Below are positions 4,888 through 58,182 of a stretch of DNA of 64,000 nucleotides, one piece after another (position 1 is the first letter of the stretch; each line of letters starts with the position of its first letter). The stretch is taken from positions 42,093-106,092 of the forward strand of contig JBDRKI010000036.1 of the NCBI GenBank assembly GCA_043814095.1, in the 5' to 3' direction. The notes beneath the pieces are model-generated. The model was given only the letters and a program-made list of their open reading frames with translations. It ran no database searches and had not been told where the DNA came from. The stretch is from Armatimonadota bacterium. Its GTDB lineage: Bacteria; Vulcanimicrobiota; JACPDS01; JBDRKI01. A program made the translations under genes and the position numbers.

Positions 4888-6852
4888 TTATTTAACTATT
4901 AATTCGCCCGCGTAATTATCGTATATCTGCGGCTGCTGGGTATAATAACCGCTTGTTCCCGAGTAAATATAATCATTTGTCAGTCCGGGTACATATCCTC
5001 CCAGCTCTTCCGCTGATATTGATGTGCTTGAATCGGCATCCGCCGGTCCGAATATTGAACCCTGACCCAGCCCTTCACATATGTAATATACAAAAACGCC
5101 GTTCTGCAGGAATCCTGACTCCCAGCTTACTTCATCGGAAGCAGAAGATGTCATAACATAGGTATTATCAAGGCCTTCAAGTGATTTAGAGAATTCTTCG
5201 CCTTTGTAGCTTAAGCTGGAATTTTTAACGGGGATATATTTAGCTTTCATGTATTCTGACCTTGAATATTTTTTATCTATGAAATGCCCGCTGAAACAGG
5301 CATCTAAGAGGATATACTTACTTGAAGTTTCAGGAAAATCCTTGATCCAGTTCTTAAGATCATTCTCGCTTATTCTCTTGGAGTCGTCATCTATGCTGTC
5401 ATGTGGTATTAGATATCCTGTATTGCCGGTGTTTGTGCCGTGTCCGGAATAAAGGAATATGAATAATCCGTCATCTGCGATATTATTTGCGGCATCCGCT
5501 ATCGCGTTCTGTATTGCTTCTTTTGTCGCCTTGGCATATCTGTTTACGCTTATACTGGCTCCGGCCCATAATGGGGAATTTAGGAGGCTGTCTTTCATAT
5601 CTACCGCGTCATCATCCGTATAACTGAGGTCATATTCGGTACCGGGATAATCACATACGCCCACAAGTACCGCGCAGACCGATCCGTCTGCCGATGATAT
5701 TGTTATAAGGGTATCCCCGCCGTCCTGGGGAGTATCCGGTTCATCCGGCTCATCAGGGATATCGGGTTCTTCATCGGGAGCTTCGTAACCGCTCCCGCTT
5801 TTTATATCCATGCTCCCGCTGTAGTTGTCATAAGACTGCGGCTGCTGTGTATAATAATAATTACTGTTATTTATAACATAGTTGTTTACGCGGGAAGGTA
5901 CATAGGAAGATAATTCTTCCGCGCTTATTGAATCATTTGAATCCGTGTCCGCGGGGCCTATTACGGCGCCCGTGCCCAGTCCTTCGCAGAGGTAATATAT
6001 GAAAACGCCGTTCTGCAGGTATCCGGATTCAAAACTTACTTCATCACCTTTTGACGAAGTCATAACATAAGTATTTTGGGATCCGGTAAGATTTTTAACT
6101 GTTTTATCGCTGTCATAATACGGGTTAGATCCTTTAACAGCCATGTATTTGGATTTTAAAGCGCCGGTATTTACACCCCGTGCATCTATAAAAAGACCGC
6201 TGAAGCATGAGTCTATTAATACGTATTTTTTAGCGGTTGAAGGAAAATTATCAATCCAGTTTTTCATTTCATATTCACTTATCATACTGGAATATCCGTA
6301 AGCGCCGTCATAAGGTATTATATATCCCGTACTTCCGTTATTTGTACCGTGGCCTGAGTACATAAATACAAATAACCCGTCGCTTGCTAAACTGTTCTGC
6401 GCGTTTGTTACGGCAGTCTGGATTTTTGCTTTTGTTACGTGTATATCACTCTGTATATTTACATCAGCGCCTGTCCATGAGCCGCTGTTTATTAAAGCGT
6501 CTTTAAAATCAAGAGCGTCTTTATATGTGCATGTAAGGTCTGAGGAATCATTGCTCCCGGGTTCATCCGGGTAATCTGATACGCCGGCTATTACCGCGTA
6601 AGCCGATCCATCCGCTTTTGATATGGTTATTAAAACACCCTTATTTTCCGGTTCCGGTGTCTGCGCTGGCGCAGGGGTGGGTTCTTCGGCAGGGGAAGAG
6701 TATACCGGTTCATTAGAAGTATTTGTTCCGCCGCCACCGCCTGTACCGCCGCCGCCTCCTCCTCCGCAGCTTGTCAGAACAAGAGTAAGCAGGGGACATA
6801 GGATAATTAATATAAAAACGGTAAAAAATAATGGAATATTTCTTTTTTTCAT
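4888..6852 (-). CDS. lipoprotein with two tandem caspase-like (peptidase C14) domains
   Basis: N-terminus MKKRNIPLFFTVFILIILCPLLTLVLTSC (lipobox) followed by a poly-Gly linker. Two ~275-aa units each carry the His box (FMYSGHGTN / FLYSGHGTN) and Cys box (IDSCFSGLF / LDACFSGHF) of the caspase dyad. Each unit also has an EF-hand-like loop (DTDSNDSISAEE / DADSSTSISAEE). Confidence 0.8.
   Translation of the reverse strand: MKKRNIPLFFTVFILIILCPLLTLVLTSCGGGGGGGTGGGGGTNTSNEPVYSSPAEEPTPAPAQTPEPENKGVLITISKADGSAYAVIAGVSDYPDEPGSNDSSDLTCTYKDALDFKDALINSGSWTGADVNIQSDIHVTKAKIQTAVTNAQNSLASDGLFVFMYSGHGTNNGSTGYIIPYDGAYGYSSMISEYEMKNWIDNFPSTAKKYVLIDSCFSGLFIDARGVNTGALKSKYMAVKGSNPYYDSDKTVKNLTGSQNTYVMTSSKGDEVSFESGYLQNGVFIYYLCEGLGTGAVIGPADTDSNDSISAEELSSYVPSRVNNYVINNSNYYYTQQPQSYDNYSGSMDIKSGSGYEAPDEEPDIPDEPDEPDTPQDGGDTLITISSADGSVCAVLVGVCDYPGTEYDLSYTDDDAVDMKDSLLNSPLWAGASISVNRYAKATKEAIQNAIADAANNIADDGLFIFLYSGHGTNTGNTGYLIPHDSIDDDSKRISENDLKNWIKDFPETSSKYILLDACFSGHFIDKKYSRSEYMKAKYIPVKNSSLSYKGEEFSKSLEGLDNTYVMTSSASDEVSWESGFLQNGVFVYYICEGLGQGSIFGPADADSSTSISAEELGGYVPGLTNDYIYSGTSGYYTQQPQIYDNYAGELIVK
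4891..5715 (-). repeat. caspase-domain unit B (aa 380-654) of the internal tandem duplication
   Basis: See unit A. The two are separated by an acidic Pro/Asp/Glu linker (EAPDEEPDIPDEPDEPDTPQD). Confidence 0.8.
5800..6636 (-). repeat. caspase-domain unit A (aa 73-351) of the internal tandem duplication
   Basis: Aligns residue-for-residue with unit B (VLITISKADGS.. vs DTLITISSADGS.., both ending ..YYTQQPQxYDNYxG). Short nucleotide identities also occur, e.g. aaaacgccgttctgcagg near 5091 and 6001. Confidence 0.8.
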
Positions 6853-6904: not shown

Positions 6905-6982
6905 TTAATTATATTATAGCATTAAAAAAGTAAAGAATTGTTAAATTTTTGTTAACAGAATGTTAACATATTGTTAACATTT
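6905..6982 (-). promoter_or_regulatory. TGTTAACA-array element, copy a (oriented toward the caspase gene)
   Basis: TGTTAACA at 6950, 6961 and 6972, with a degenerate TGTTAAAT at 6939 (exact 11-bp phasing). On the minus strand these are followed by TTTAACAATTCTTTAC and TATAAT (6918-6913), about 60 nt before the ATG at 6852. Confidence 0.6.
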
Positions 6983-24000: not shown

Positions 24001-24469
24001 ATTAAAAGAAAAACTTAAAGGCTCGAAAAAAATCGTAGTTTTAGTCCTTGGCTCAGATCTTCGCGGCGATGATGAAGCCGGGATACTTGTTGGGAAAGAG
24101 CTGGAAAAAAAGATAGATGCTTCTAAAGTTCAGGTGCTGTACGGGTTTACAGCACCTGAAAATTTTACGGGGCAGATTAAAAAGATTAATCCTACCCATA
24201 TCATAATGGTTGACGCGGCTCAGATGGATAAGTCTCCCGGGGATGTAGATATTATTGAAAAAGACAGTATAGACTGCATAACCTTCTCAACCCATTCACT
24301 TCCCATAAAGATAATGGTTGATTATATGAAAGAATCAATTGATGCTGAAAGCGTAATTATCGGCATTGAACCCAAAGATATGGGTTTTGATAAGAAAGTC
24401 TCTCCGGAAATTAAAAAAGCCGTGAAAAAGACCGCGAAAATTATATTAGATGTCGTAAAAGATAAATAA
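23984..24469 (+). CDS. hycI: hydrogenase maturation endopeptidase (HycI/HyaD family)
   Basis: 161 aa. VLGSDLRGDDEAG, IMVDAA and FSTHSLP blocks match the metal-binding pattern of [NiFe] large-subunit C-terminal proteases. TTG/GTG start overlaps the previous gene. Confidence 0.72.
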   Translation: MRVQNKLKEKLKGSKKIVVLVLGSDLRGDDEAGILVGKELEKKIDASKVQVLYGFTAPENFTGQIKKINPTHIIMVDAAQMDKSPGDVDIIEKDSIDCITFSTHSLPIKIMVDYMKESIDAESVIIGIEPKDMGFDKKVSPEIKKAVKKTAKIILDVVKDK

Positions 24470-27471: not shown

Positions 27472-27532
27472 AAAATGTTAACAAATTGTTAACATTTTTG
27501 TAACATTCTGGCAATATAATTATGTTATAGTT
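27472..27532 (+). promoter_or_regulatory. TGTTAACA-array element, copy b
   Basis: TGTTAACA at 27476 and 27487, T-GTAACA at 27499, TGGCAATA at 27509 (11-bp register), TATAAT at 27515-27520, TATGTTAT at 27521. The downstream gene's RBS and ATG are at 27556-27570. Confidence 0.6.
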
Positions 27533-27569
27533 TAGATAAGAAAATATGACACAAAATGGAGAGTATATT

Positions 27570-28130
27570 ATGGCAAGCAAAATAGAAGCTTTTATACAGG
27601 CATTAAAAGAGCCGGTTATAAAGCCTAAGGTTTATGATCAAACAAAACTTCTGGGAGAATTGAGAAACAGCCTTGCTTCTACCATATGCACCATTAAAAC
27701 TCTTTATCCTCACGAAACAGGCAAATCTATATCGGAGATGACCGTAAAAGAGGGCGAAACGTATTTTAAAAGAGTCCTTAAAAACGATAAATCAATAGGC
27801 GGAAGATTTATTAAAGATGTTTTCTATTTTTACAGGTCAATGGAATTGGAAGTTATGGCAGAAGGCTTTATAAAAGCGCTTTGTCATTGTGTTTCAAAAT
27901 CCGCCAATGTTACCGGTTCAGCAGAAGTTCTTTCTAAATCTGTAATGAATTTAGCGCCAGATGACCAGATCCAGCATTACTGCCGCATAATTGAAAAAGC
28001 AGAGATAAAAGCGGCAAGAAATGCTACGAGGAGAGAAGGAGCTTTGACTAAATTAAGAGAGTTTTTTAAAGGCGGCAAACTGAAGATAAAAAAACCTTCA
28101 GGGATTAAATTTAAACTTCCTAAATGGTAA
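27570..28130 (+). CDS. hypothetical protein (ORFan) with short Lys-rich C-terminal tail
   Basis: The track ORF starts at 27546. ATG at 27570 is preceded by GGAGA at 8 nt. No motif recognised. The tail is KGGKLKIKKPSGIKFKLPKW. Confidence 0.6.
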   Translation: MASKIEAFIQALKEPVIKPKVYDQTKLLGELRNSLASTICTIKTLYPHETGKSISEMTVKEGETYFKRVLKNDKSIGGRFIKDVFYFYRSMELEVMAEGFIKALCHCVSKSANVTGSAEVLSKSVMNLAPDDQIQHYCRIIEKAEIKAARNATRREGALTKLREFFKGGKLKIKKPSGIKFKLPKW

Positions 28131-30231: not shown

Positions 30232-30239
30232 ACAACCTC

Positions 30240-31442: not shown

Positions 31443-31458
31443 GTATCCTCCTTGTTAA

Positions 31459-32190: not shown

Positions 32191-32200
32191 AAATTCACCC

Positions 32201-33484
32201 CTATACTTTATTTAAATTTATAAGTCCTTCATATTCTCTTGTAATATCGCCGTATAAAGGAAACTTCGCGCATAAAGATTCTACGTCTTTTTTAACCCGA
32301 TTAATTACAGCTTCATCTTCGGGAGATTTTAAAACTTTTATGATAAGATGCGCTACTTCTTCCATCTGTTCTTTTTTCATTCCCCTTGTTGTAAGGGCAG
32401 GTGTGCCGAGCCGGATGCCTGATGTTACGAGTGGTGGATTAGGGTCAAATGGGATTGTGTTTTTATTTACCGTTATGCCTGCTTTATCTAAAGAAGTTTC
32501 CGCTATCTTCCCCGTTATATTCAAACTTGTAAGGTCAACAAGCATAAGGTGGTTGTCCGTGCCGCCCGATACTATTCTTAAACCTTCTTTTGTAAGAGCT
32601 TCTGCCAGAGCTTTGGCGTTTTCTAAAATCTCTTTCTGGTAGATTTTAAATTCTTCCGTCATGGCTTCTTTAAAAGCCACTGCTTTTGCGGCAATCACGT
32701 GCATTAAAGGGCCGCCCTGGAAGCCCGGGAAGAGGTTCCTGTTAAGATCTTTTTTATACTGTTCTTTTGAAAGGATAAGGCCTGATCTGGGGCCTCTTAA
32801 TGTTTTATGTGTGGTGGTTGTAACATAATCCGCGTAAGGTACCGGGCTGGGATGCAGGCCCGCAGCTACCAGTCCCGCTATATGCGCCATATCAACGACA
32901 AAACACGCGCCGACTTCATCGGCTATTTTCCTGAATTTTTCAAAATCTATAATTCTTGAATAAGCGCTTGCTCCCGCGAGCAGCATTTTAGGTTTACTCT
33001 CAAGGGCCAGTCTCCTTACCTCGTCATAATCTATTGTTTCAGTCTCTTTATTTACGCCGTAAGGTACTACCTTAAAATATTTGCCTGAGAAGTTTAAAGG
33101 ATGCCCGTGTGAAAGATGCCCCCCGCATGATAGATCCATGCCCATGAAGGTATCTCCTGGTTCTAATATAGAGAAAAACACCGCCATATTGGCCTGTGTG
33201 CCGGAATGGGGCTGTACATTGGCGTGTTCGGCGCCGAAGAGTTCTTTTGCTCTTTGTATGGCTAATCTTTCGGCAACATCAACATATTCGCATCCCCCGT
33301 AATATCTTCTGCCGGGATAGCCTTCCGCGTATTTATTTGTAAGTACGGAACCCTGCGCTTCCAGAACTGCTTCGGACACGAAATTTTCGGAAGCTATGAG
33401 TTCCAGTTTTGTTGCCTGGCGCTTTGTTTCATTATATACGGCTTCGGCTATCTCTGGATCTGTTTTAATCAAGTGTTTAAACAT
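32201..33484 (-). CDS. glyA: serine hydroxymethyltransferase
   Basis: The track ORF starts at 33523. ATG at 33484 ([12 protein letters not shown]..) is preceded by AGGAG. SHMT blocks LIASENF and [15 protein letters not shown] (PLP lysine). Confidence 0.93.
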
Positions 33485-33587
33485 AATATACTCCTGGGTT
33501 TTTATTGTTTTAGTTTTTAGCATTATTTAACTTTAAAGTTTGTTTTAATTAATCAGGGCGGTTGTTTAAGCCGCCCCGGATACAATG

Positions 33588-36053
33588 TTATTTGTTTATC
33601 TTTTCAAGATACTCGTTAATCGCTTTATACTGTGAATCCGCGTCCAGGTGAGCTTCTTTGAAGATCTCGTCCGGTTCGCCGCTGCCGTAGGGGCCTATGC
33701 TCTCATTCTCATCGGCATCTTTACCGATCTGGCTCGGCGGTTTGTAGGAATAGAGAGAGTATCTTAAGCCGATCTCATCCACATAAGGCCTGATTGTACC
33801 TTCTGTGAATTCGGTTATTGCTATTGAGGCTCTTCTTGTTCTTTCTTTGTCGGTATAAGGGAGTACTTTGTCCCTGTATTCTACAGTCTGCATCCTGAAG
33901 AGTTCATGACTTGTTATTACAACTATAGATACATTCCATTTCTTATCTATCTTTTCAAGCACTTCTTCAATGAATATTTTCGCAACCCCCGCTCCCTGGA
34001 GCACGATTGTGCCGTCAACCTTTTTACTTGTGTCTGCAGGTCTTAATATATAGCCGCCTTTTGCAGCTTCTACTGCATCAGCAAATCCTAGTTTTTTCCT
34101 GTCAAAGACGATCCCGTCCGGTCTTGCTATAAACGGCACTATGGCAACAGGTCTTGCCATGTAAGATGCCACCATAAGAGGGAATATTTCATTTGGATCT
34201 ATAGGCAGTATGGTTATTAAGCTTCTGTAAGGGAAGTTCTCTCTCCATACGCTTAATGCCTGGGGATCAGCGTGTGTTCTTACCCCGTCAGGGCCTGTCC
34301 ATAAAGAGGCGTGGAATGCGCCTATCTGAACGGGAGCTCTCAGGTCTCTTTCATGCGAGCCCCACGGTCCGTCCGCTACTTTAACATGGGTATGAGCAAG
34401 AGACTGGAAAGCACCGTATGAAGTCGTGACGCCGGTATATCTACCGGAAGCGCCTAAGCCCAGCATAAGCCCGGCGTTTGCGTCTTCCGTTATACCGCCT
34501 CCGTGAAGTATTCTTGATGACCTGTTGTTTTCTCCGTAATAATAATCTTCTTTATTATCTCCGCCGAAGGAATCTGTAATGCCCGGTAGTGTTGAGCTTA
34601 AAAGGTCAGCAGATACGACCCAGTAAGCGCCGTTTGTGAGTTTATTAATGTATGATGCGATATCAACATACTGTTTTCTGTAAGATCCTTTGCCCGGTTC
34701 CATAATAAGTTCCGCGGGAGGTTTTGAAGCATCAAGAGGTTTTTCAGCCGTAAACTTTACAAGCGGGGTTATATCAGCTGTAGTCATTTTTCTGTTTTTT
34801 GGGACTCTCTCTTTTGCCTGCATGACTCTCTTTACGATAAAGTCGGTAAGCTTGGGTTTGTTTTTAAGTACTTCTGATACGGCATTAAGACTCTTCATGA
34901 AGTATTCTTCTATTACATCCTGGTCCCGGCTCTCGGGCATGCGCGGGAGAGAGGTGCTAAAGCGTTTCTCAAATTCTTCCTGTGACGCGAAATATTCTTT
35001 ACTGTCGGTTTTATGTCCCGCTCCGTGATATTTTCTTCCAACTATACAGCACATGGGGTCATAACCCTTGCTCTTTGTTGTATGGAATACGCCCACGGCG
35101 AAACGGCTGCTTTTCTTCATTATATCATTTATAATGCCGAGCCCTGCGGTTACCTGATGGAAGTTATGGCCGTCGTTTACGGTAATAACATTGGCGCCGT
35201 GTGTTGAGGCCAGTTCTTCCGGTGTCCATGAAGCCACTTTTCCTTCGGATATATTATTGAGGTCTTTTGAACAACCTACAACACAGTTTTCGTCTATATT
35301 CGCGTTGTTAAAATCACCGAGGAATGCAACATTGCCCAGTTTCATGTTATGAGCGCACTGGTAGGCTTCCTGGTATCTTCCGGGTGTTGAACCGCCGTCA
35401 GCTCCTTCAAGTATATATACATACGGAGGATTATCTCCCATAAATGTTTCTCTTAAGCTTAACGCGAGCCCCAGCATCTGCGGTGCTCCGTAGCCGGATG
35501 CGCCCGAAGCCAGCCTTATAAACGGGGTCTCGGGGATAGGGTGGCCTTCAAGTCTTACCGGGTTATATTTATCCACTAACTTTGAAGAATAAGTTACGTT
35601 TCTTCTAAAGCCCAGCATATCCTTGAAAAGGATAACATCTTTAGGAAGGGCCTTGGGCTCTCTCATTTTAACGGCTTCAAACAAAAGGGTAAGTACCGCG
35701 TACATACCGTTTGCTTTATGTCCGGATGCAAGCCCTATAACATCATTATGTATATTATCCGGATCACTTATATCATATCTTAATGTGTCAAGCAAAAGCC
35801 CTATAAGCTGGGGGCCGGCCGATATTGCTCCGCCAGGGTGGCCGCTCTGGCGGTAATTGAACATGATCTTTATTATGGTATCATATAATACCCTTACGTC
35901 ATTGAATAAATCGTAGGTTTCTTCATCAAGATAAGGTGCCTGTTTTAATACTTCATCAGTTGATGTAAAGAATTGATTTTTTTTCTTGAAATCAATGCTT
36001 CCAAGGTAAGACGGTTTTAAGGGTTTGTTTGTGTCTGATAAGAGTTTTTCCAT
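33588..36053 (-). CDS. divergent, long transketolase-like thiamine-diphosphate enzyme
   Basis: 821 aa. TK-like SGHPGGAIS and ASGHKANGMYAVL. ThDP motif variant EGADGG...FNNANID. Longer than the roughly 660 aa I recall for canonical transketolase. Confidence 0.55.
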   Translation of the reverse strand: MEKLLSDTNKPLKPSYLGSIDFKKKNQFFTSTDEVLKQAPYLDEETYDLFNDVRVLYDTIIKIMFNYRQSGHPGGAISAGPQLIGLLLDTLRYDISDPDNIHNDVIGLASGHKANGMYAVLTLLFEAVKMREPKALPKDVILFKDMLGFRRNVTYSSKLVDKYNPVRLEGHPIPETPFIRLASGASGYGAPQMLGLALSLRETFMGDNPPYVYILEGADGGSTPGRYQEAYQCAHNMKLGNVAFLGDFNNANIDENCVVGCSKDLNNISEGKVASWTPEELASTHGANVITVNDGHNFHQVTAGLGIINDIMKKSSRFAVGVFHTTKSKGYDPMCCIVGRKYHGAGHKTDSKEYFASQEEFEKRFSTSLPRMPESRDQDVIEEYFMKSLNAVSEVLKNKPKLTDFIVKRVMQAKERVPKNRKMTTADITPLVKFTAEKPLDASKPPAELIMEPGKGSYRKQYVDIASYINKLTNGAYWVVSADLLSSTLPGITDSFGGDNKEDYYYGENNRSSRILHGGGITEDANAGLMLGLGASGRYTGVTTSYGAFQSLAHTHVKVADGPWGSHERDLRAPVQIGAFHASLWTGPDGVRTHADPQALSVWRENFPYRSLITILPIDPNEIFPLMVASYMARPVAIVPFIARPDGIVFDRKKLGFADAVEAAKGGYILRPADTSKKVDGTIVLQGAGVAKIFIEEVLEKIDKKWNVSIVVITSHELFRMQTVEYRDKVLPYTDKERTRRASIAITEFTEGTIRPYVDEIGLRYSLYSYKPPSQIGKDADENESIGPYGSGEPDEIFKEAHLDADSQYKAINEYLEKINK

Positions 36054-36180
36054 TTTTTTCTCCTTTTTTAAGTGTTTTATTGTATATTACGGGTTTGCCG
36101 CAATACATACAATATTAAGTTTATATTATATTAATCATAAAATCAAGAGTTCCTTCTTAAAAAAATAACCCTATAAAGTA

Positions 36181-36250
36181 TATTTTGTTAACATTTTTTT
36201 AACAATTTGGCAATATTTTGTTAATATTTCTATGTTAATATTATAATAAC
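36181..36250 (+). promoter_or_regulatory. TGTTAACA-array element, copy c
   Basis: TGTTAACA at 36186, TTTTAACA at 36197, TGGCAATA at 36208, TGTTAATA at 36219 (exact 11-bp phasing), TATGTTAATA at 36231. TTGGCA-N18-TATGTT is a possible -35/-10 pair. ATG at 36301. Confidence 0.6.
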
Positions 36251-36300
36251 AGATAATACTATCTAAAAATAACCAAAAACATATAGATACAGGATGGGAA

Positions 36301-36927
36301 ATGAATACTATAAATCCGGTGAATTTCGGTAATTTTATTAAAGATTTATTACAAGATACTAAGGATTCAAAAAATCCGGTGGAAGAAGCGGGAAGATCCG
36401 GGGTTGAGCGTGTTGAGAGTCAGAATCTTCGTGATATTTTATTTGAAGCAGTATGGCTTAAAGACAGGGCAGGCCTGGAAGGTAAAGATAAATACGGTTT
36501 TTCCTGCAAGACTGAAAAAACAACCTTGTCCGGGAAAGAATATGATATATATACAATAGTGAAAACCAAAACTATAGGAAAAGAGATTTTTAAACAAAAA
36601 ATCTCTTACCATATTAAAACTGGTTTTTTAAAAGCAGAATTTTTCAGGAAAACTTTTGAAGAATACTGCATAAAGAACGGAAAAACGATACCCTTATGCG
36701 GTTATGAGATATACCAGCGCGGAACAGCCCAGACAGAGAATTTTATGGCCGAGGAAGGCGAGGAACCATTTGTGGATTTTAAGATACAGAGGAAAGAATC
36801 AAAAGAAAACCTTGTATACAGAACGATATATTTCAGGGACGGTGAATTCTGTGAAAAGTTCAGGGAAAAATTTTATAAACAAACCCGGTTATCCCCCGGA
36901 GGGCTACCACCCGGAGGTCGTAAATGA
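36301..36927 (+). CDS. hypothetical protein (ORFan 1 of operon)
   Basis: 208 aa with no recognisable motif. ATGA stop/start overlap with the next gene. Confidence 0.65.
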   Translation: MNTINPVNFGNFIKDLLQDTKDSKNPVEEAGRSGVERVESQNLRDILFEAVWLKDRAGLEGKDKYGFSCKTEKTTLSGKEYDIYTIVKTKTIGKEIFKQKISYHIKTGFLKAEFFRKTFEEYCIKNGKTIPLCGYEIYQRGTAQTENFMAEEGEEPFVDFKIQRKESKENLVYRTIYFRDGEFCEKFREKFYKQTRLSPGGLPPGGRK

Positions 36928-38075
36928 ACGGCTTTAGTTCAACAGAAAAGCAGGGAAGCTTTATAGAAGTGGCCGGCAGAACGCTTAGTATTATAAAGAA
37001 CGGCCAGAGAATAAATAAAGATCTTCTTTTTGAAGCTTCTTCCGTTTGCGGTTACGGCAAAAACGGCAATATGGTCGTAAAGACCGATGAAGGCGTAAAA
37101 ATTATAAATGTTCTTGATTCGGGAGTTATTCATCTTTTAACCGATTTCAGTAAAAACAGTTTAAGGGAAGAGAACGCTTTTCTGGGAGACATAAAGATAG
37201 ACGATAAGGGAAAACTTCTCTGCATAGAAAGAATGAATTACAGGTATAAACTTATAGATATGGTTCTAAACTTGCTGAAAATCCGCAAAGCGGTTCCCCA
37301 TATTGAAGACCGCCAGTTCATATTCTATAACTTAGAAGAAAGAACAAGGCGTCTGGTATATGTTCATTCCATGTATAAACGGGGAAAGAACCGCGTAAGG
37401 TGGGCCATATCTCCTAATTTCAAATACCTTGTGATTATAGAGAAAGAATACAAAAATCAAAAAGAATCCGTGTATATTGTAAATATAGCTATAAACAGGG
37501 TGCTTGCCAGAATAGATGTTGCCGATACAAGCGCAGAGAATGTAATGGTGAATAATTTCGGTTTCTGCCTGTTTGAGATTAAAAAGAGAAGCAGAAAATG
37601 GGAGTATGTTATCCTTACAAGCAACGGTAAAGTTATAAGATTTGAAAAAGATACTTCAACCAAACTTATGCATTTCGGGAACAAAATTATAGTATTTAAA
37701 AAGCCCAAAGAATCTCAGCTTATCATAAAAGACTTAAACGAGAAAACCATAGGAGAGTTTGATTTAAAACCGCTTAAGAAACTGGACTTTAATTACGAGC
37801 TCTTTTTTAATGAAAATGATGATATAGAAGTTGTTCTTTCCCAGAACGGGAAAGTTAAAGTCCTGCACTGCAGCCTGGATACTTTCCATACTGACGTTAA
37901 AAGATGGCAGGTCCTGGCAGAAAAAATGGAAAAAGCAGAAGCGATAGAGAGAATAAGCAGCAGGAACGATATCTCCCCGCGCAGGGGGAGGAGCTTTATG
38001 AATTTCAGAGTTGATTCCCATGAAGCGCTAAGCCAGGCTTTATATAACTCCTTAACGGAGAAGATGGATAATTGA
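36924..38075 (+). CDS. hypothetical protein (ORFan 2), beta-rich, possibly propeller-like
   Basis: 383 aa with no signal peptide. Repeated beta-strand-like blades (e.g. ISPNFKYLVIIEK, compare the SPDGKYL motif of TolB/DPP-IV propellers). Helical C-terminus. GGAGGT RBS. Confidence 0.65.
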   Translation: MNGFSSTEKQGSFIEVAGRTLSIIKNGQRINKDLLFEASSVCGYGKNGNMVVKTDEGVKIINVLDSGVIHLLTDFSKNSLREENAFLGDIKIDDKGKLLCIERMNYRYKLIDMVLNLLKIRKAVPHIEDRQFIFYNLEERTRRLVYVHSMYKRGKNRVRWAISPNFKYLVIIEKEYKNQKESVYIVNIAINRVLARIDVADTSAENVMVNNFGFCLFEIKKRSRKWEYVILTSNGKVIRFEKDTSTKLMHFGNKIIVFKKPKESQLIIKDLNEKTIGEFDLKPLKKLDFNYELFFNENDDIEVVLSQNGKVKVLHCSLDTFHTDVKRWQVLAEKMEKAEAIERISSRNDISPRRGRSFMNFRVDSHEALSQALYNSLTEKMDN

Positions 38076-38107
38076 GTTGAAAAAAAAGATAAAAATTGGG
38101 GTTCATA

Positions 38108-38812
38108 ATGGATAATGTAATTAACGGTATAAAGGTAATAAAAACAGTAGACGGCATTCCTAAAGGTGTTGTTAATGATACCGTTATGGGAAAAGTCCCT
38201 GTAGTATACCGCTATAATCCTATAAGTAAGTCTTCTGAATGGCTGACGGATACAGCTGAAATAGAAGTCAGTGTAGAATCAGCCGTTAAAACACTTCTTC
38301 ATCAGGTGCGGGTTCTTGTGGGGCAGAAAGGTTATGGTTCCATTGAACACAGGATATTTATAATAGAAGCCGAGACATTAAAGAATTTTGCCGGGGTGCC
38401 GAATGACGGCAAATGCCGCATAGATATTAATTTTACAACAAAAAATATGTTAAAGATTAAATCTTCAATGGAAAGAAATCCTGCGCTAAAGGAACAGTTT
38501 ATAGATCTTATAAGTGATATATATATGGATGCAAGAAGCTGTAATGCTCCTAAAGAAGAGAATATCACCGCGCTTAAAAAATTGCTCTACCGCGCCGGAT
38601 TCAGATATACAAAGAGCTCTTCAAGCAAACTGGGCAGGCTTAGAAAAAATATATATAAAGGCGAAGCAGGGAGAAGGACTAAAACAAGAAAACCTAAGCT
38701 GCCTCCGGGGGCCAGAGCTAAAGTCAGAACACCAAAACAATCTCCTAGGGGAAGGATGAAAAGGTTTGAAGTAAAGGCTCCCAGGTGGATGAGAATATTT
38801 AATAAGATATAA
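38108..38812 (+). CDS. hypothetical protein (ORFan 3) with ~60-aa Lys/Arg/Pro-rich C-terminal tail
   Basis: The track ORF starts at TTG 38096. ATG at 38108 is preferred. The tail is RRTKTRKPKLPPGARAKVRTPKQSPRGRMKRFEVKAPRW. Confidence 0.6.
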   Translation: MDNVINGIKVIKTVDGIPKGVVNDTVMGKVPVVYRYNPISKSSEWLTDTAEIEVSVESAVKTLLHQVRVLVGQKGYGSIEHRIFIIEAETLKNFAGVPNDGKCRIDINFTTKNMLKIKSSMERNPALKEQFIDLISDIYMDARSCNAPKEENITALKKLLYRAGFRYTKSSSSKLGRLRKNIYKGEAGRRTKTRKPKLPPGARAKVRTPKQSPRGRMKRFEVKAPRWMRIFNKI

Positions 38813-38855
38813 GCTTTGCAGGGAAGCTGTTATTATATAAAGAAATACCTTCATT

Positions 38856-41780
38856 ATGAACCAGTTAGATTTATATTCCAGCGATGTCTTAGAGGGTCTT
38901 AATGAAGCACAGCTAAAGGCCGTTTCATTCGGGGAAGGGCCTCTTCTTATAATAGCGGGCGCGGGGACAGGCAAAACTTCCGTTATCACAAAAAGAATAG
39001 CTTATCTTATCTCCGGGAAAAAATGCAGGACAGACCAGATACTTGCCCTTACATTTACCGATAAGGCCGCCCAGGAGATGGAAGAAAGAGTAGACCTTCT
39101 TGTCCCTTACGGATACACGGATGTTATGATATCAACTTTTCATGCATTCGGTGATTTCCTCTTAAAAGAACACGCTTTGGAGATAGGTCTTGCTTATGAT
39201 TTCAAGGTTCTGTCTAAACCCGAGCAGATAATTTTCCTTAAGGAAAATTTATACAAGCTTCCTTTGAAGCATTACAGGCCCGGAGGAAATCCTACTTCTT
39301 ACCTTGACGCCATAACCACCCTTATATCCCGAGCTAAAGATGAAGACATATCTTGCGAAGAATATATAAAATACGCGGAAAAGGTTCTTGATGATGCCCG
39401 CAGGAATGAAGATGTTGAAAAAATTGATGAATATGAAAAGCAAGCAGAGTCAGCAAGTACATATAAAAAGTACCGGGAGCTTATGACAGAGAATGGTTTT
39501 ATTGATTTCGGCGACCAGGTCGGGCTTTGCTTGAAGCTTTTCAGGGAGAACCCTTCAATACTGAAAAAGTACAGGGAAAAATTTAAATACATACTTGTTG
39601 ATGAGTTCCAGGATACAAATCTCGCGCAGTATAAACTTATAAAAATGCTTGCGGGAGGCGAGGGTAATCTTAATGTTGTAGGCGATGACGATCAGAGTAT
39701 ATATAAATTCAGGGGGGCCGCAATAAGCAATATCCTGAATTTTAATAATGATTATCCGGATGCCGAGAAGATTGTCTTGAATACAAACTACAGGTCTACA
39801 CAGAATATACTTGATACCTCCTACAGGTTAATATGCCATAATAATCCCGACAGGCTTGAAGTAAAAAATAATATTGATAAAAAACTTGTAAGTGTAAAAG
39901 GGAAGGGCAGTTATATAGCCAATCAGTCTTTTGACACAATAAGCACCGAGGCCGATTATGTAGCTGATTATATAAAAAAAGGTGTAAAAGGCGGCAGGAA
40001 GTATAAAGATTGCGCAATACTTGTCCGTTCAAATAACGATTCACAAGCATTTATACAGTCTTTAAATATGGCGGGTATACCTTACAGGTTCTCGGGTCAG
40101 GGCGGACTTTATACAGATAGCAATGTACAGCTTTTAATCTCTTTATTAAGGGTTATTAAAGACCCCAATGACAGCATAAGCTTATATAATCTTGCAGTAT
40201 CCCACTTATATAATCTTGACCCTGTTGATATAAAAGACTGTTCAAATACTGCTTATAAAAGAAATCTTCCCTTGTTTAAAATATTCAGAGATTTTGAAAA
40301 GATTTCCGATCTTTCTTCTTTAACGGAAGAAAGTAAAAAAACAATTAAAAAAATATCAGAGGATATAGAGCAGTATGTATCTGATTCTTTTAATATATCC
40401 ACAGGCAAGCTTCTCTATAAATATGTAAAGGATAAGAAGGTTTTAAAAAACCTTCTTGATAAGGAGTGCCCGGGTTCTGAAGAAAAGATTTACAATATTT
40501 CAAAATTCTTTGAAGTAATAAACAATTATGAAAAGCTTTACCCGGGGACGAGACTCCCTCAGTTTGTAGAGCACCTTGACTTTATGATAGCTTCAGGGGA
40601 TAACCCCTCCACCTACCAGGCGGACCCGGATCTTGATTATGTTAATATCCTTACATATCACAAGGCAAAGGGACTGGAGTTTTCGGTTGTGTTTATGGTT
40701 AATCTTGTGCAGGGCAAATTTCCAGTAAGAAACAGGCACGATAAAATAGAGATACCCTTAGAGCTTATTAAAGAAACACTGCCCTCGGGGGACTTTCATA
40801 TCCAGGAAGAAAGAAGACTGTTTTATGTGGGTATGACAAGGGCAAAAGACGAGCTTATCTTTACCTATTCCCGCGATCTTGGAGGCAAGCGCCAGAGGAA
40901 GGCAAGCCAGTTTGTGCTTGAAGCGCTTGACCTTCCAAAAGCGGAAGTGAAATCAAAAAAATCCTCACCGGGTGAATATTTAAAGAGATTTGAAGATATT
41001 AAAGTTAAGCAGGATACCGCGTATTCTGTTTCCGATGATGTTATTTTAACTTTAAGCGCCAATTCAATAGAAGATTATATGGACTGCCCGTTAAGATATA
41101 AATTTATGCATATCCTGAAGATCCCTGTTGCAAAGCATTTCGCATTTATTTACGGCAGCGCCGTGCATAATACAATAAATTATTACCATACGAGAAAGAT
41201 CCAGGGCAAAAAAGTAAAGTTTGAGGAATTAGAAGACGTATTTAAGGCAAACTGGATAAGCGAAGGATTCCTTTCACAGGATCATGAAAAACAGCTGTAC
41301 ACAGAAGGGTTGGAAGTTCTTAAAAAATTCTTTGATAAAAGCGAGAAAGAAAAAGACATACCTACCTGTGTTGAAAAAGAGTTTGCGTTTAGTGTTGATA
41401 ATATAAAGGTGAAGGGAAGATGGGACCGCGTGGATATAGGCAAGAACAGCGCGGTTATTACCGATTACAAAACAAGCAGGATAAAAAACAAAAAAGAAGC
41501 CGATAAACGCGCGAAAGACAGCTTCCAGCTTGCGGTTTACGCGCTTTCGTACCAGAAAATTTATAATAAACCCGCGGATAAAGTCCAGCTTTATTTCCTG
41601 ACGGATGAGATTGCCGGGGAAGCGGTTAAATCGCAGAATGATATTAATGATACAGTTGAAAAGATAAAACAGGCCTCCAAAGGCATAAGGAAAGGTATAT
41701 TTACGGCCAACCCTAATTACATGAACTGCATGTACTGTTCTTATAAAAACTTATGTAATGAAAAAAATAGTGAACAGTAA
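38856..41780 (+). CDS. UvrD/PcrA-type SF1 helicase fused to a Cas4/AddB-type PD-(D/E)XK iron-sulfur nuclease domain
   Basis: 974 aa. Walker A AGAGTGKT. LVDEFQDTN, VGDDDQSIYKFRGA, TYHKAKGLEF and VGMTRAKDEL helicase motifs. The C-terminal nuclease has CPLRYKF ... GRWDRVD ... DYKT ... QLAVYA ... CMYCSYKNLC (C-x2-C-x5-C). Confidence 0.85.
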   Translation: MNQLDLYSSDVLEGLNEAQLKAVSFGEGPLLIIAGAGTGKTSVITKRIAYLISGKKCRTDQILALTFTDKAAQEMEERVDLLVPYGYTDVMISTFHAFGDFLLKEHALEIGLAYDFKVLSKPEQIIFLKENLYKLPLKHYRPGGNPTSYLDAITTLISRAKDEDISCEEYIKYAEKVLDDARRNEDVEKIDEYEKQAESASTYKKYRELMTENGFIDFGDQVGLCLKLFRENPSILKKYREKFKYILVDEFQDTNLAQYKLIKMLAGGEGNLNVVGDDDQSIYKFRGAAISNILNFNNDYPDAEKIVLNTNYRSTQNILDTSYRLICHNNPDRLEVKNNIDKKLVSVKGKGSYIANQSFDTISTEADYVADYIKKGVKGGRKYKDCAILVRSNNDSQAFIQSLNMAGIPYRFSGQGGLYTDSNVQLLISLLRVIKDPNDSISLYNLAVSHLYNLDPVDIKDCSNTAYKRNLPLFKIFRDFEKISDLSSLTEESKKTIKKISEDIEQYVSDSFNISTGKLLYKYVKDKKVLKNLLDKECPGSEEKIYNISKFFEVINNYEKLYPGTRLPQFVEHLDFMIASGDNPSTYQADPDLDYVNILTYHKAKGLEFSVVFMVNLVQGKFPVRNRHDKIEIPLELIKETLPSGDFHIQEERRLFYVGMTRAKDELIFTYSRDLGGKRQRKASQFVLEALDLPKAEVKSKKSSPGEYLKRFEDIKVKQDTAYSVSDDVILTLSANSIEDYMDCPLRYKFMHILKIPVAKHFAFIYGSAVHNTINYYHTRKIQGKKVKFEELEDVFKANWISEGFLSQDHEKQLYTEGLEVLKKFFDKSEKEKDIPTCVEKEFAFSVDNIKVKGRWDRVDIGKNSAVITDYKTSRIKNKKEADKRAKDSFQLAVYALSYQKIYNKPADKVQLYFLTDEIAGEAVKSQNDINDTVEKIKQASKGIRKGIFTANPNYMNCMYCSYKNLCNEKNSEQ

Positions 41781-41811
41781 TAAAGATAGCTAACGTAAGA
41801 GGTGTATGATT

Positions 41812-43614
41812 ATGAAGAGAATAAAATTATTTACATTACTTGTATCCCTTATTATAATCTTTTTTTTAGTCTCATCAGCAACATATGCGGCGGGCTTTGA
41901 CTGGAAGATTACATCATTCTGTTCTTCAATCAAGGTTAATGATGACAGATCAATAGATGTTGAAGAAGTAATAACAACTGATTTTAAATCCCAGATGCAC
42001 GGGATATACCGCTATATACCCACAGTTTTCGGGAAAGGCATGCTGGGGAGCAATTCTTTAGGGTACAAACTTATAAGTATTACGGATGAGAAAGGCGCCC
42101 CGTATCCTTTTAATACTTATACTAAAGGAAATTTTGTAAGCTACAGGATAGGGGACCCGAATAAAACAATAACAGGCAAACATGTTTATGTTATAAAATA
42201 CAGGATGGCAAAAGCGGTTAAAACCTATAAATCTGATAATTTCGCGCCCGGCATTACTGAACACGATGAACTTTATTTTAATGTTACAGGCAACGGCTGG
42301 GCGGTTGATATTGATTACGCCCAGGCGGTCATAATCCTGCCGAAAGCAGGCAACCCCGATATGATGAGAATAAAAGTGTATACCGGGAGTTACGGAAGCA
42401 AGGCAAGCAATAGTGTGGCTAAGATTATAAAGGGGCGGACTTTTTACTGTTCTGCCAGGGATCTTAAGCCGTATGAAGGCTTAACTGTCGCCGCCGGCTG
42501 GCCCGTTGGAATAATTCAGAAAGAGAATAAGACTTTAAATACAATCCTTTTTCTTCTTTCCAACTGGTATTTATTTATACCGTTATTTGTGCTGATAGCG
42601 CTTTTTTATGTATGGTATAAAAACGGGAGGGATATAAAAAGCGGGGATGCTATAATGGCCCAGTATACGCCGCCCGAGAAAAAGAAAGGCGATTGCTTTT
42701 CTCCGCTGGATGTGGGAGTCATAATTGATGAAAGGTTTGATCCAAGGGATCTTACCGCGCAGATTGTTGATCTTGCCGTTAGAGGGTATCTTAAGATAAA
42801 GGAAATAGAAACCTCAAAGATGTTTTTATTTAAGAATAAAGATTATGAGCTTATAAGAACGGATAAAGCGGATACCGATCTTACTCCTTTTGACAGAAAA
42901 CTTTTAAAGAAGCTCTTTAAACACGGGAAAAATAATAAGGTAAAACTCTCAGAGCTAAAGTATGAATTTTCCAGTGATTACACATCTTTAAAAAATGATA
43001 AATACAAAGATCTTGCAAAAGACGGTGTGTTTGTGTCAAATCCCGAGAAAGTGCGTTCGGATTATGTACTTACAGGAATCGGGATAATAATATTTGGTGT
43101 TGTTGCAGCTATAGTTCTCTCCGTTTTTAATATAATATTTTCGCAGGATAAAATCGGCTTGAGTATTTTCTCTGTTGCTCTTTCCGGAGTTATTTTCATA
43201 ATATTCGCGCCTCTTATGCCGAAAAAGACCCCGTTCGGTGCCCAGGTTTTAAACCACATCCGGGGGTTTGAGGATTATATAAAAACAGCGGAGAAGAACC
43301 GAATAGAATGGGAAGTTAAGGAGAATATATTTGAAAAATACCTTCCTTACGCTATGGTCTTCCGTCTTGAAGAGAAGTGGGCACAGAGATTTGAGGGTTT
43401 GTATAAAGAATCTCCGGAATGGTTCATAGCGGTAACACCGTATACGGCTTTTTCCACTTCAAATTTTGTTCATTCAATGAATGACGCGAGCAGTTTTATG
43501 GCAGGCAGCCTGGCATCAGCGCCAAGATCAACGGGTTCCGGCTCTAGCGGTTTCTCCGGCGGCGGGGGATTCTCAGGAGGAGGAAGCGGCGGCGGCGGCG
43601 GCGGCGGCTGGTAA
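41812..43614 (+). CDS. DUF2207-like membrane protein with poly-Gly C-terminus
   Basis: ATG at 41812 is better spaced from AAGAGGTG than the track start 41806. Signal peptide, large extracytoplasmic domain, several TM helices. The tail is GSGSSGFSGGGGFSGGGSGGGGGGGW. Confidence 0.6.
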   Translation: MKRIKLFTLLVSLIIIFFLVSSATYAAGFDWKITSFCSSIKVNDDRSIDVEEVITTDFKSQMHGIYRYIPTVFGKGMLGSNSLGYKLISITDEKGAPYPFNTYTKGNFVSYRIGDPNKTITGKHVYVIKYRMAKAVKTYKSDNFAPGITEHDELYFNVTGNGWAVDIDYAQAVIILPKAGNPDMMRIKVYTGSYGSKASNSVAKIIKGRTFYCSARDLKPYEGLTVAAGWPVGIIQKENKTLNTILFLLSNWYLFIPLFVLIALFYVWYKNGRDIKSGDAIMAQYTPPEKKKGDCFSPLDVGVIIDERFDPRDLTAQIVDLAVRGYLKIKEIETSKMFLFKNKDYELIRTDKADTDLTPFDRKLLKKLFKHGKNNKVKLSELKYEFSSDYTSLKNDKYKDLAKDGVFVSNPEKVRSDYVLTGIGIIIFGVVAAIVLSVFNIIFSQDKIGLSIFSVALSGVIFIIFAPLMPKKTPFGAQVLNHIRGFEDYIKTAEKNRIEWEVKENIFEKYLPYAMVFRLEEKWAQRFEGLYKESPEWFIAVTPYTAFSTSNFVHSMNDASSFMAGSLASAPRSTGSGSSGFSGGGGFSGGGSGGGGGGGW

Positions 43615-43634
43615 ATAAAGATAAGGTGATATTT

Positions 43635-44354
43635 ATGAGAAAAATAACAGTTTTAATAATTTTAGCGGTAATAATTACAACTTCATTTGCATATTCTTTC
43701 CAGCTTGAATTAATAAGTAAAGAGCAGGAAATACAGATAGGGAAAGATGCCGCAAGCCAGATTGAATCCGAATACGGTACTGTTAATAATGCCGCACAGC
43801 TTGCAAAGATAAACAAGATAGGCAAAAAGATAGTAACTGTATGCGATAGACGCGACCTCCCGTATTCATTTAAAATATTAAATACCGACCAGGTTAACGC
43901 CATATGCTGTCCCGGCGGCTTTATATATGTAACAAAAGGGCTTATGAATCTTAAACTCAGCGATGATGAGCTTGCCTGTGTTCTTGCACATGAGATAACA
44001 CACGCGGTGAAAAGACATGCGGTAAACCAGATTACGGCTACCATGGGGGTAGGGGTTCTGCTGGACCTTGTTACCAAAGGGCAGGCGTCCCAGCAGCTCT
44101 CAGGCCAGGTTGTACAGCTCCTTCTCACCCGCGGCCATTCAAGGGATGATGAGTATGACGCAGACCTTACAGGCGCTACTTACGCCTTTTACGCGGGATA
44201 TAATCCTTACGGGATGATATATTTCTTACAGGAACTAAATAAGCTGGAAAAGAGCAATCCTACATTCTTAGACCAGTTTATAGCGACACATCCTCCTAAT
44301 AATGACAGAATAGCAAGGTTAAAGCCCCTATGTAAGAGTCTTACGGGAAAGTAG
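43635..44354 (+). CDS. secreted M48-family zinc metallopeptidase
   Basis: The track ORF starts at GTG 43626. ATG at 43635 follows AAGGTGA. HEITHAVKRH (HExxH) and the C-terminal THPPNNDRIARL block. Confidence 0.8.
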   Translation: MRKITVLIILAVIITTSFAYSFQLELISKEQEIQIGKDAASQIESEYGTVNNAAQLAKINKIGKKIVTVCDRRDLPYSFKILNTDQVNAICCPGGFIYVTKGLMNLKLSDDELACVLAHEITHAVKRHAVNQITATMGVGVLLDLVTKGQASQQLSGQVVQLLLTRGHSRDDEYDADLTGATYAFYAGYNPYGMIYFLQELNKLEKSNPTFLDQFIATHPPNNDRIARLKPLCKSLTGK

Positions 44355-56519: not shown

Positions 56520-56576
56520 AGTTAACAATTTGTTAACAATTTGGCAATAATTTAGCAATATAATTATGTTAATATT
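56520..56576 (+). promoter_or_regulatory. TGTTAACA-array element, copy d
   Basis: AGTTAACA at 56520, TGTTAACA at 56531, TGGCAATA at 56542, TAGCAATA at 56553 (exact 11-bp phasing), TATAAT at 56559-56564, TATGTTAATA at 56565. ATG at 56632. Confidence 0.6.
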
Positions 56577-56631: not shown

Positions 56632-56916
56632 ATGAATATCGGGAGTATGAAAATCAGCGGGCAGAATAAAGCAGGGAGCTTATTTGGAGCAATACCTATA
56701 CACAAAGAAACAGACATAGATAAACTTATTAAGAAGCTACGAAAGACACCTAACAGGTTGGAGCGCATGACTATAATATGGCGGCTGTGTGATTTATACT
56801 ATCAGCTTGATTATAGTAAGCGCAAAGAAATTAGAAGAGTTATAGAAAAAGTAGCTTCAGATGATGTGGATGAAAATGTGCGCAGGTGGGCGGATTATAA
56901 ATTAGACGGAAAATAA
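56632..56916 (+). CDS. small hypothetical protein with one HEAT-like repeat
   Basis: 94 aa, GGAGGT RBS. C-terminal VASDDVDENVRRWADYKL resembles a PBS-lyase/HEAT-type repeat. Confidence 0.55.
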   Translation: MNIGSMKISGQNKAGSLFGAIPIHKETDIDKLIKKLRKTPNRLERMTIIWRLCDLYYQLDYSKRKEIRRVIEKVASDDVDENVRRWADYKLDGK

Positions 56917-56952
56917 AATATATAAACCTATTTATAATAACAGGGGGAAAAT

Positions 56953-57603
56953 ATGGGATTCAGGATAATAGATGCGGCAAAAGAAAAGGTTAAGTTTATA
57001 CCCAAAGAAGCATCCGCCGGTATGAAAACACAGATTAAATTAGATTCTGTTAAAGGAAAGGGCGCAAGGGTGGCTTTAGCTGAGATGCTGAACTTTTTTG
57101 ACAAAGACATAAACGGCACCTTAGAAGGTGATGAATTAAAAGCACTTTATAAAGTAGTGGGGGAGAGCATATCTGTTAAAGAAGTAGCAGATGTACTGAT
57201 TAAGAAATCAACTAAGGGAGAGTTTACTGAAAAACTTCATGCTGTTAGCGCCATGGGCCACCTTGGTACTGTTACGGATGAGGTTGTACCCGCTCTTATT
57301 GATGCCGTAAAAAGGGACAGCGATATTTTATGCTGTGGCGCGGCATCTTCACTTGGAATAATAGGTGAGAAAGCAAGACCTGCAGTCCCGGCACTTGCGG
57401 CTAAACTGAAAGATGAAACAGTAGCCGAGGAAGCATACAGCTCTATAACTTTTGCTCTTGCCGTTATAATCCCGAAAACAAACCGCACTAAGGAAGAAGA
57501 GTCTGCAGTTAAGCTCATTAATGAAATTGCAGGGGATAAAAACCATGTATTTCAAGATTATGCTAAAAAAGCCCAGAAGCTTATGAATCAAAAGAAAAAA
57601 TAG
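56953..57603 (+). CDS. EF-hand + HEAT-repeat protein
   Basis: 216 aa. Canonical EF-hand loop DKDINGTLEGDE. HEAT-like repeats VVPALIDAVKRDSDILCCGAASSLGIIGEKARPAVPALAAKLKDE. Confidence 0.6.
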   Translation: MGFRIIDAAKEKVKFIPKEASAGMKTQIKLDSVKGKGARVALAEMLNFFDKDINGTLEGDELKALYKVVGESISVKEVADVLIKKSTKGEFTEKLHAVSAMGHLGTVTDEVVPALIDAVKRDSDILCCGAASSLGIIGEKARPAVPALAAKLKDETVAEEAYSSITFALAVIIPKTNRTKEEESAVKLINEIAGDKNHVFQDYAKKAQKLMNQKKK

Positions 57604-57612
57604 GGGGAGATT

Positions 57613-58182
57613 ATGTCTTTTCAGATTAGTAATATCAAGTCTGCTTCCTTATACGGCAGTAAAAATGTTCTTAAAAATGATATGGCGGAAAGATATCTTA
57701 ATAAGCTTTTTGTGGCCATGAAGGAGAATAATGAAGAAGAGATATCAGTCTGTATAGAAGGACTTGCTAATTTAGACATCCGTTCACAGAATATTGATCA
57801 CTATATTACTGAATTAGTAAAGTATGAAAATCCCGATATAAGTTCTCTGGCGGCATGGGCAGCAGGCAGGCTCGGGATAAAAGAAGCAGTGCCTGAGCTT
57901 ATAAACATGCTTAAGAATAAAGATGACAATGTTTTTTCCAGTGCAATTATTGCATTAGGGAAGATAGGTGATGAAAGAGCCGTTAACCCTCTTTTATTTT
58001 CTCTTGACAGAAAAAATATGTACCAGGATCAGTTTATATCCATAATTAGGTCGCTGGGAGAGATAGGGTCTAAGAAAGCTCTAAGAACTCTTTTATATAT
58101 ATCAAATGATAAACAGCAGCCTGTAAAAATACAATCAGCCGCTAAAAGTGCGGTTGATAAGATTAAGGAAAACAATAAGTAA
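57613..58182 (+). CDS. HEAT-repeat (PBS-lyase type) protein
   Basis: 189 aa. Repeats EAVPELINMLKNKDDNVFSSAIIALGKIGDERAVNPLLFSL and IIRSLGEIGSKKALRTLL. Confidence 0.65.
   Translation: MSFQISNIKSASLYGSKNVLKNDMAERYLNKLFVAMKENNEEEISVCIEGLANLDIRSQNIDHYITELVKYENPDISSLAAWAAGRLGIKEAVPELINMLKNKDDNVFSSAIIALGKIGDERAVNPLLFSLDRKNMYQDQFISIIRSLGEIGSKKALRTLLYISNDKQQPVKIQSAAKSAVDKIKENNK

Follow-up and report, generated by a model that had tools for sequence, protein, structure and literature searches.

Phased four-unit direct repeats before extended -10 promoters mark a regulon in an uncultured bacterial lineage and probably form an OmpR/PhoB-type activator site

In Bacillus subtilis, PhoP recognizes four TT(A/T/C)ACA repeats that recur with an 11-bp periodicity from about -60 to -20, which would agree with both TTAACA, the core, and the location of the array described here. 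CtrA is a regulator of the OmpR family. For PhoB, each box comprises 8 bp and an A/T-rich 3-bp linker and lies 10 bp upstream from the -10 hexamer (PMC1906773), and effector domains of the PhoB type bind head-to-tail (PMC4415409). The WalR consensus is TGTWAH-N5-TGTWAH (PMC4168254); at promoters under its activation, CtrA usually occupies the -35 position (PMC11264516), and flagellar genes are among those it controls (PMC3692519); and ArcA sites consist of 2-5 direct repeats with an 11-bp center-to-center distance, the weaker of which are occupied in a concentration-dependent manner (PMC3798270).

Our analysis of a 64-kb window (the whole stretch of DNA under study) showed that an element present in it four times is a genuine regulon signal, strongly supported by comparison with related sequences, and the element is probably a tandem direct-repeat activator site for a response regulator of the OmpR/PhoB family. 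The first-pass annotation had recognized in it no described regulator box, a statement that is not supported in view of the layout of Pho boxes (PMC1906773) and the 11-bp repeats of ArcA (PMC3798270). Like the Pho boxes of Escherichia coli PhoB, cyanobacterial SphR, and B. subtilis PhoP, the element is built from 8+3 direct repeats, of which the proximal one lies some 10 bp before the -10, and has no -35; it differs from them in that its targets here are not phosphate genes and in that the array may sit one or two turns farther upstream. Adjacent units match the WalR/VicR (YycF) consensus exactly (TGTTAA-N5-TGTTAA), but WalR sites usually have two repeats, whereas four are the rule here, and the host is, judging from its EF-G, not a member of the Firmicutes. 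The CtrA motif TTAA-N7-TTAA(C) is contained in TGTTAACAnnnTGTTAACA; CtrA, however, is confined to the Alphaproteobacteria, far from this lineage, and uses single two-repeat boxes, not four-unit arrays. The best named EF-G relatives are not alphaproteobacterial, and no genes for a CckA-ChpT-CtrA relay were seen. ArcA differs in being mostly a repressor whose sites are not fixed relative to the -10. A full-text search of the literature for TGTTAACA returned primers only.

The window is bacterial chromosome of ~40% GC and carries amino-acid catabolism genes, a membrane-bound hydrogenase cluster, and genes for EF-G and SerRS. The best named relatives of its EF-G (an unclassified bacterium, "Ca. 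Eremiobacteraeota," and Spirochaetota) are 62-70% identical and metagenomic relatives 78-79%, and these low identities indicate that the organism belongs to an uncultured, deep-branching lineage. The 13-gene cluster at 14535-24469 encodes a membrane-bound Mbh/Ech-like complex with three antiporter-like subunits, NuoB/C/D/H/I-like subunits, and a HycI maturation protease.

Exact copies of TGTTAACA number 7 in the window against 0.92 expected, a count reached in 0 of 100 shuffles, and all 7 fall in the four intergenic regions named in the first-pass annotation. The sole recurrent short spacing of TGTTAACA matches in the window, with one mismatch allowed, is 11 bp, and each of the four regions, read toward its downstream gene, is a run of four consecutive 11-bp units. 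Using a position weight matrix (PWM) derived from the 16 window units and summed across four phased slots, we obtained 44-52 bits at the four sites, with 8.4 bits for the next best position in the window and a maximum of 21 bits over 100 Markov-1 simulated windows; this gap points to four discrete sites without weaker copies. The scan of the 64-kb window revealed no array copy within coding regions, and all four copies face a downstream open reading frame (ORF). The claims of a common 11-bp-phased architecture, of no strong copy inside genes, and of orientation toward a downstream gene were borne out. A two-unit pattern was too frequent to discriminate, as judged from viral contigs. Avoidance of GTTAAC as a restriction site was rejected, as the site is not depleted outside the arrays.

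Each unit consists of an 8-bp TGTTAACA-type core and a 3-bp A/T linker, and the four units follow one another head-to-tail at 11 bp. Distal units 1 and 2 are nearly perfect; proximal units 3 and 4 are degenerate, and only in their left half. A5, A6, and A8 are invariant among the window copies, in which the left half of the unit varies. We extended the comparison to 26 nonredundant promoters, of which four are the window copies and 22 stem from related contigs, with the sites at loci L263 and L265 as additional ones. The pooled units (n = 104) read T92 G80 T70 T82 A102 A102 C90 A103, followed by a W-T-T linker (A54/T46, T79, and T87 out of 104). Arrays for OmpR/PhoB-family regulators have tandem repeats at 10-11 bp (exactly 11 bp in the window copies and in the 26 promoters), with a core of 7-8 bp (here 8) and an A/T-rich linker of 3-4 bp (here 3). 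Mismatches across the 104 units are strongly one-sided, with 91 in the left half and 19 in the right half, and the degenerate proximal forms TGGCAAYA and TTGTAACA recur, always with the same polarity relative to the -10. G2, C7, and the register are kept among copies despite differing linkers. Together, the one-sided mismatches and the constant polarity of the degenerate forms indicate that the recognized unit is directional, i.e., a head-to-tail direct repeat instead of a symmetric site, the strand of each promoter having been assigned by a matrix that was itself trained on the window copies.

This bears on the earlier proposal of 2-4 perfect or one-mismatch palindromes per copy, 11 bp apart, bound by a dimeric helix-turn-helix (HTH) regulator. 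The spacing stands, but the units are not equivalent palindromes, since the left half varies. A dimeric HTH protein that reads each TGTTAACA palindrome and polymerizes along one DNA face would account for palindromic cores phased one turn apart; it is nevertheless a very improbable reading, given the fixed polarity and the one-sided degeneracy of the units. It also conflicts with established structural knowledge, as the half-site centers lie only ~4 bp apart, whereas HTH dimers need about one helical turn, so that an 8-bp palindrome is too short for a classical dimer and neighboring dimers placed every 11 bp would clash. Symmetric recognition of units 1 and 2, the best of which are perfect palindromes, is conceivable. 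Directly 5' of unit 1, a 12-bp flank, TAArGknCrAAA, is conserved (profile from 25 promoters, e.g., L148, L218, and L196). The flank is not recognizable as a fifth unit and could be the site of a second protein or an upstream contact for RNA polymerase.

An extended -10 element, TRTGnTATAAT, lies exactly 9 or 20 bp past the last unit in the window copies. The TATGTTA(A/T) motif, listed earlier as a box of its own, is made up of the TRTGn extension and the first letters of the -10 hexamer. Copies b, c, and d have the hexamers TATAGT, TAATAT, and TAATAT, respectively, each after TATGt and 9 bp from the last 8-mer. In copy a, TGCTATAAT lies 20 bp (9 + 11) past the last 8-mer, which corresponds to the same design shifted by one 11-bp unit; this copy was rightly said to keep the array and a TATAAT box, but its supposedly different layout amounts to an offset of 20 instead of 9 bp. 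Across the 26 promoters, the last 8-mer and the -10 are separated by 9 bp (n = 10), 20 bp (n = 14), or 31 bp (n = 2), with no other values, a regularity that is somewhat inflated because a matrix and a filter based on the window copies helped to select the strand and the -10 offset of the relatives. The TRTG motif, the presence of downstream ORFs with ribosome-binding sites, and orthology are independent of this choice of strand and register. Each of the TRTG positions is matched in 20-23 of the 26 promoters, and TATAAT itself is found in 17.

No usable -35 was found at 16-18 bp in the window copies; among the 26 promoters, 24 match TTGACA at the -35 position in at most 3 of 6 letters, and a true -35 (TTTACA at 17 bp) occurs only in the two 31-bp promoters. 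The proximal repeat takes the place of the -35 about 10 bp before the -10; the gap measures 9 bp in 10 of the 26 promoters, as it does for copies b, c, and d, and 9 + 11 or 9 + 22 bp in the rest. TTGGCA, within TGGCAATA, was rejected as a -35 because it would leave a 23-bp spacer before the -10. MerR-like binding in the spacer was rejected as well, as the spacer holds no unit in the 20-bp class.

Extended -10 promoters can fire without a -35. As they need none, a small oligomerizing ribbon-helix-helix protein of the MetJ/Arc/omega type could in principle silence a constitutive promoter of this kind from the array, which would then be a repressor operator. The perfect 8-bp palindromes of units 1 and 2 and the overlap of the 9-bp-class array with the -35 and spacer region would suit such an operator. 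We consider this unlikely, since the units are conserved asymmetrically with a polarity fixed relative to the -10, and since simple occlusion would not require offsets quantized at 9, 20, and 31 bp; moreover, the arrays of the 20- and 31-bp classes end at or upstream from the -35 position. Periods of 8 bp for MetJ boxes and 7 bp for omega heptads contrast with the 11-bp period found here, which together with the asymmetric conservation also departs from the abutting, symmetric 8-bp palindromes of met boxes. An identical design at pstS promoters beside two-component genes (see below) likewise argues against a repressor of this type. Activation is favored over repression by the missing -35 and by the strict helical quantization of the offset.

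Copy c, the flagged copy, occupies 36186..36229 on the plus strand (units TGTTAACAttt, TTTTAACAatt, TGGCAATAttt, and TGTTAATAttt; 52.2 bits) and is conserved in locus L209. It is preceded at 36174..36185 (+) by the 5' flank TAAAGTATATTT, a partial match to TAArGknCrAAA before unit 1, and followed, 9 bp after the last 8-mer, by the extended -10 TATGt + TAATAT at 36231..36241 (+), with an overlapping alternative TATAAT 6 bp further downstream (36242-36247, +). The operon behind it (36301..44354, +) is headed by a gene for a 208-aa ORFan, which is followed by genes for 383-aa and 238-aa proteins, a UvrD + PD-(D/E)XK helicase-nuclease, a DUF2207 membrane protein, and an M48 peptidase. The 208-aa protein had no homolog in a large protein database; its syntenic counterpart in L209, 35% identical, was reached only via the DNA motif.

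Copy a lies on the minus strand at 6936..6979 (TGTTAACAata, TGTTAACAttc, TGTTAACAaaa, and ATTTAACAatt; 48.9 bits), with its extended -10, TGC + TATAAT, at 6913..6921 (-), 20 bp after the last 8-mer. Its target (4888..6852, -) encodes a lipoprotein with two caspase (Peptidase_C14) domains and the lipobox LTSCGGGGGG. Copy b (27476..27519, +; TGTTAACAaat, TGTTAACAttt, TTGTAACAttc, and TGGCAATAtaa; 47.7 bits) has TATGt + TATAGT at 27521..27531 (+), 9 bp after the last 8-mer, and precedes a gene for a 194-aa ORFan without a Pfam match (27546..28130, +), the real start of which is probably the ATG at 27570, behind GGAG. Copy d (56520..56563, +; AGTTAACAatt, TGTTAACAatt, TGGCAATAatt, and TAGCAATAtaa; 44.4 bits) has TATGt + TAATAT at 56565..56575 (+), again 9 bp after the last 8-mer, and precedes genes for three small proteins, one of 94 aa, one of 216 aa that shows weak matches to EF-hand and HEAT, and a HEAT-repeat protein of 189 aa (56632..58182, +). 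A reading of the window as a defense island was not supported, the PADLOC matches being a generic caspase and UvrD (GajB-like) only.

The element was sought upstream from orthologs in related genomes, as had been suggested, and was found there. A metagenome scan with a three-unit pattern yielded L209, which is syntenic with window positions 29230-38075. The protein identities of the neighboring genes are high (OTC, 89%; M20, 82%; SHMT, 83%; transketolase-like, 76%), whereas the two genes right behind copy c are only 35% and 41% identical between the two loci (36301-38075 versus L209:319-2341), which suggests that the regulon targets evolve much faster than the surrounding genome. In the orthologous spacer of L209, the sole alignable block runs from the 5' flank and the array through TATGTTAnnAT; this block is a phylogenetic footprint of copy c. 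In the same syntenic region, a PilZ-domain protein (31459-32190 versus L209:6587-7327) is 50% identical and both of its flanking genes are ~82% identical.

Orthologs of the caspase gene, 48-57% identical, occur in L138, L139/L140, and L141, and all have four units with 9 or 20 bp and TATAAT or TACAAT. The upstream region in L138 is TGTTAACAattTGTTAACAtttTGGTAACAattTTGTAACA followed by 9 bp and TATAAT, and L141 and L139/L140 have four units followed by 20 bp and TGTGnTATAAT or TACAAT. Two further arrays in L139 precede a second caspase gene and a gene for a beta-propeller lipoprotein, respectively. In L263, the element precedes a DUF5117/DUF4953 metalloprotease gene adjoining the EF-G gene. Comparison of window positions 2656-6852 with L263:105-5085 (EF-G 78% identical) placed this metalloprotease gene in the slot beside EF-G that is occupied in the window by the caspase gene. 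This swap with retention of the element suggests that, at this locus, one promoter type serves different secreted proteases in the two relatives. In a more distant relative (L264; 56% GC), 22 kb of sequence contained no copy of the element.

A repeated AT-rich sequence with helical phasing could also be a mobile or structural repeat of the MITE kind, or intrinsically curved DNA with no specific binding protein. We regard this as hardly credible and effectively refuted: there are no terminal inverted repeats and no copies in genes, G2, C7, and the register persist while the linkers vary, and every copy faces an ORF with a -10 at a fixed distance. Mobility had been named beforehand as the behavior that would point away from a regulatory site; no target-site duplications were found, and the element is kept at orthologous positions where the flanks have diverged beyond alignment. 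The central claim of the first-pass annotation, a shared promoter plus a multisite array on one DNA face that marks a regulon, therefore holds, the element being intergenic, gene-oriented, and conserved at orthologs.

Among the regulon products are lipoproteins with the lipobox LxGCGGGG (the caspases and a lactonase-like propeller), a metalloprotease, an L,D-transpeptidase operon (L171), small membrane proteins, and many ORFans without any Pfam match. Several regulon proteins share an N terminus in which a lipoprotein signal ends in L-x-G/S-C and is followed by 5-8 glycines; this glycine-run N terminus was noted in the window (4888-6852) and in L138, L139, L141, L198, and L218. Flagellar operons accompany the element in three independent loci. 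The order in L196 is fliI, fliJ, SLT, fliK, the element, and a FlgE/F/G-type gene; in L158, it is fliR, flhB, flhA, the element, and an 80-aa gene; and in L265, the element heads an operon with two flgF/G-type rod genes, a rod-binding gene, and a sigma factor gene. This membership looks like a surface and motility program, not a phosphate regulon. It resembles CtrA control in that the element precedes flagellar operons and WalR control, rich in cell-envelope enzymes, in that an L,D-transpeptidase operon follows the element in L171 and that an NlpC/P60 gene lies behind a similar array in L121. To our knowledge, flagellar genes and caspases have not been described as WalR targets.

Among the ~28 downstream genes sampled from this lineage (a partial genome sample), none encodes a phosphate transporter, a phosphatase, or PhoU. 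True Pho boxes, bound by PhoB/PhoP before phosphate-starvation-responsive genes, would nevertheless agree with the layout known for PhoB (PMC1906773) and with the occurrence of the TGTTAACA-type unit and geometry before pstS-like genes in L134 and L154. The gene content of the regulon makes this quite improbable for the lineage studied here, and four sites per 64 kb would be dense for a Pho regulon.

Our assignment to the class of OmpR/PhoB activator sites, made with moderate confidence, draws on the Pho-box layout together with loci that serve as positive controls. In a Dehalococcoidia metagenome-assembled genome (MAG) (L134/L164/L204), four TGTTAACA units, 9 bp, and TATAAT directly precede a pstS-like gene. 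In L154, a gene for an OmpR-type regulator (Response_reg/Trans_reg_C type), the array, and a PstS-like gene follow one another, and in L125, the array adjoins a gene pair for a Response_reg + Trans_reg_C (OmpR-type) protein and a PAS-HAMP kinase. In unrelated bacteria, the TGTTAACA-type unit and geometry thus stand before pstS near a PhoP/PhoR-like pair. In the 64-kb window itself, no gene for a response regulator or other recognizable transcription factor was seen, and a phmmer search of the window and of ~100 kb from related loci of the lineage, with a verified OmpR-type query, detected no OmpR-type regulator.

We infer to which family the protein belongs, that it activates rather than represses, and in which order the units are filled. 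In the mechanism that we propose, a winged-helix OmpR/PhoB-family response regulator would bind the array of four 11-bp units as two tandem dimers on one DNA face. Binding would be nucleated by the two distal, near-perfect units, and the weaker proximal units (TGGCAAYA, TTGTAACA, and similar forms) would fill cooperatively as active regulator builds up. The promoter-proximal protomers might then occupy the place of the -35 and recruit RNA polymerase, which would grip the DNA via the extended -10 (TRTGnTATAAT). The array offsets of 9, 20, and 31 bp differ by multiples of 11, so that the same face of the protein would be turned toward the polymerase in all three classes.

It is conceivable, and we suggest it only tentatively, that a lineage-specific master regulator couples flagellar assembly genes (rod, hook, and sigma factor) to secreted proteases and a large set of nonhomologous, rapidly evolving ORFans. 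The binding protein might not be a canonical two-component regulator. Many of the regulon ORFans have polar N termini rich in glycine, asparagine, and serine, without signal peptides; these proteins could be substrates of flagellar type III export or new flagellum-associated components.

The mechanism is of a well-known type, and no new kind of regulatory mechanism is revealed; the interest lies in the unusual regulon, with its caspase-like lipoproteins, fast-evolving ORFans, and flagellar genes, and in the uncultured host lineage. For this deep-branching lineage, four phased units and an extended -10 at 9 + 11n bp provide a precise cis-code by which regulon genes that are otherwise unannotatable (ORFans and caspase-like lipoproteins) can be read off and tied to motility. 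Distant bacteria (the Dehalococcoidia MAG and L154) reuse the TGTTAACA-type 11-bp direct repeat to control pstS, which aids the annotation of Pho and related regulons in MAGs.

Across 185,579 species genomes, the three-unit pattern was found at 17 scattered loci, none of them from the window's own genome. We know of no reason to expect OmpR-type regulators in Methanobacteriaceae, and three to four perfectly phased TGTTAACA units were observed there (L123:421-449 and L131:5837-6044), so that another protein must read them in these organisms. The presence of arrays in varied organisms means that this class of sequence is not exclusive to one protein family and alone proves none.

Arrays of other kinds were also noted. 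A promoter-like block, GTTAACATGTTGTTAACATCGTGGTAACAGCGTGAGAGTAGGATG, is conserved in 11 soil contigs of ~53% GC (L152, L155, L169, L177, L182, L217, L220, L225, L246, L251, and L254) and lies, in the flanks that were inspected, between a gene for a 1188-aa outer-membrane receptor-like protein and a divergent 261-aa gene; it looks like a separate regulon with the same half-site. Three phased TGTTAACA/TGTTAATA units occur beside dnaA, between rnpA and dnaA in a Patescibacteria MAG (L133), and L178, L216, L222, and L224 have the array and its flank in common with L133; these arrays may be an origin or dnaA-promoter element. Satellite-like runs of at least 10 TGTTAACA units with 10- or 11-bp periods are present on short metagenomic contigs (L189, L211, L208, L187, L258, L259, L231, and L163). 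Finally, a MAG labeled Synergistia (L124:4604-4692; 35% GC) carries the promoter design of the window, with TGGCAATA, 9 bp, and TGGTATAAT; its array has six units, with a 2-bp phase slip between units 4 and 5, and precedes a gene for a 164-aa membrane ORFan.
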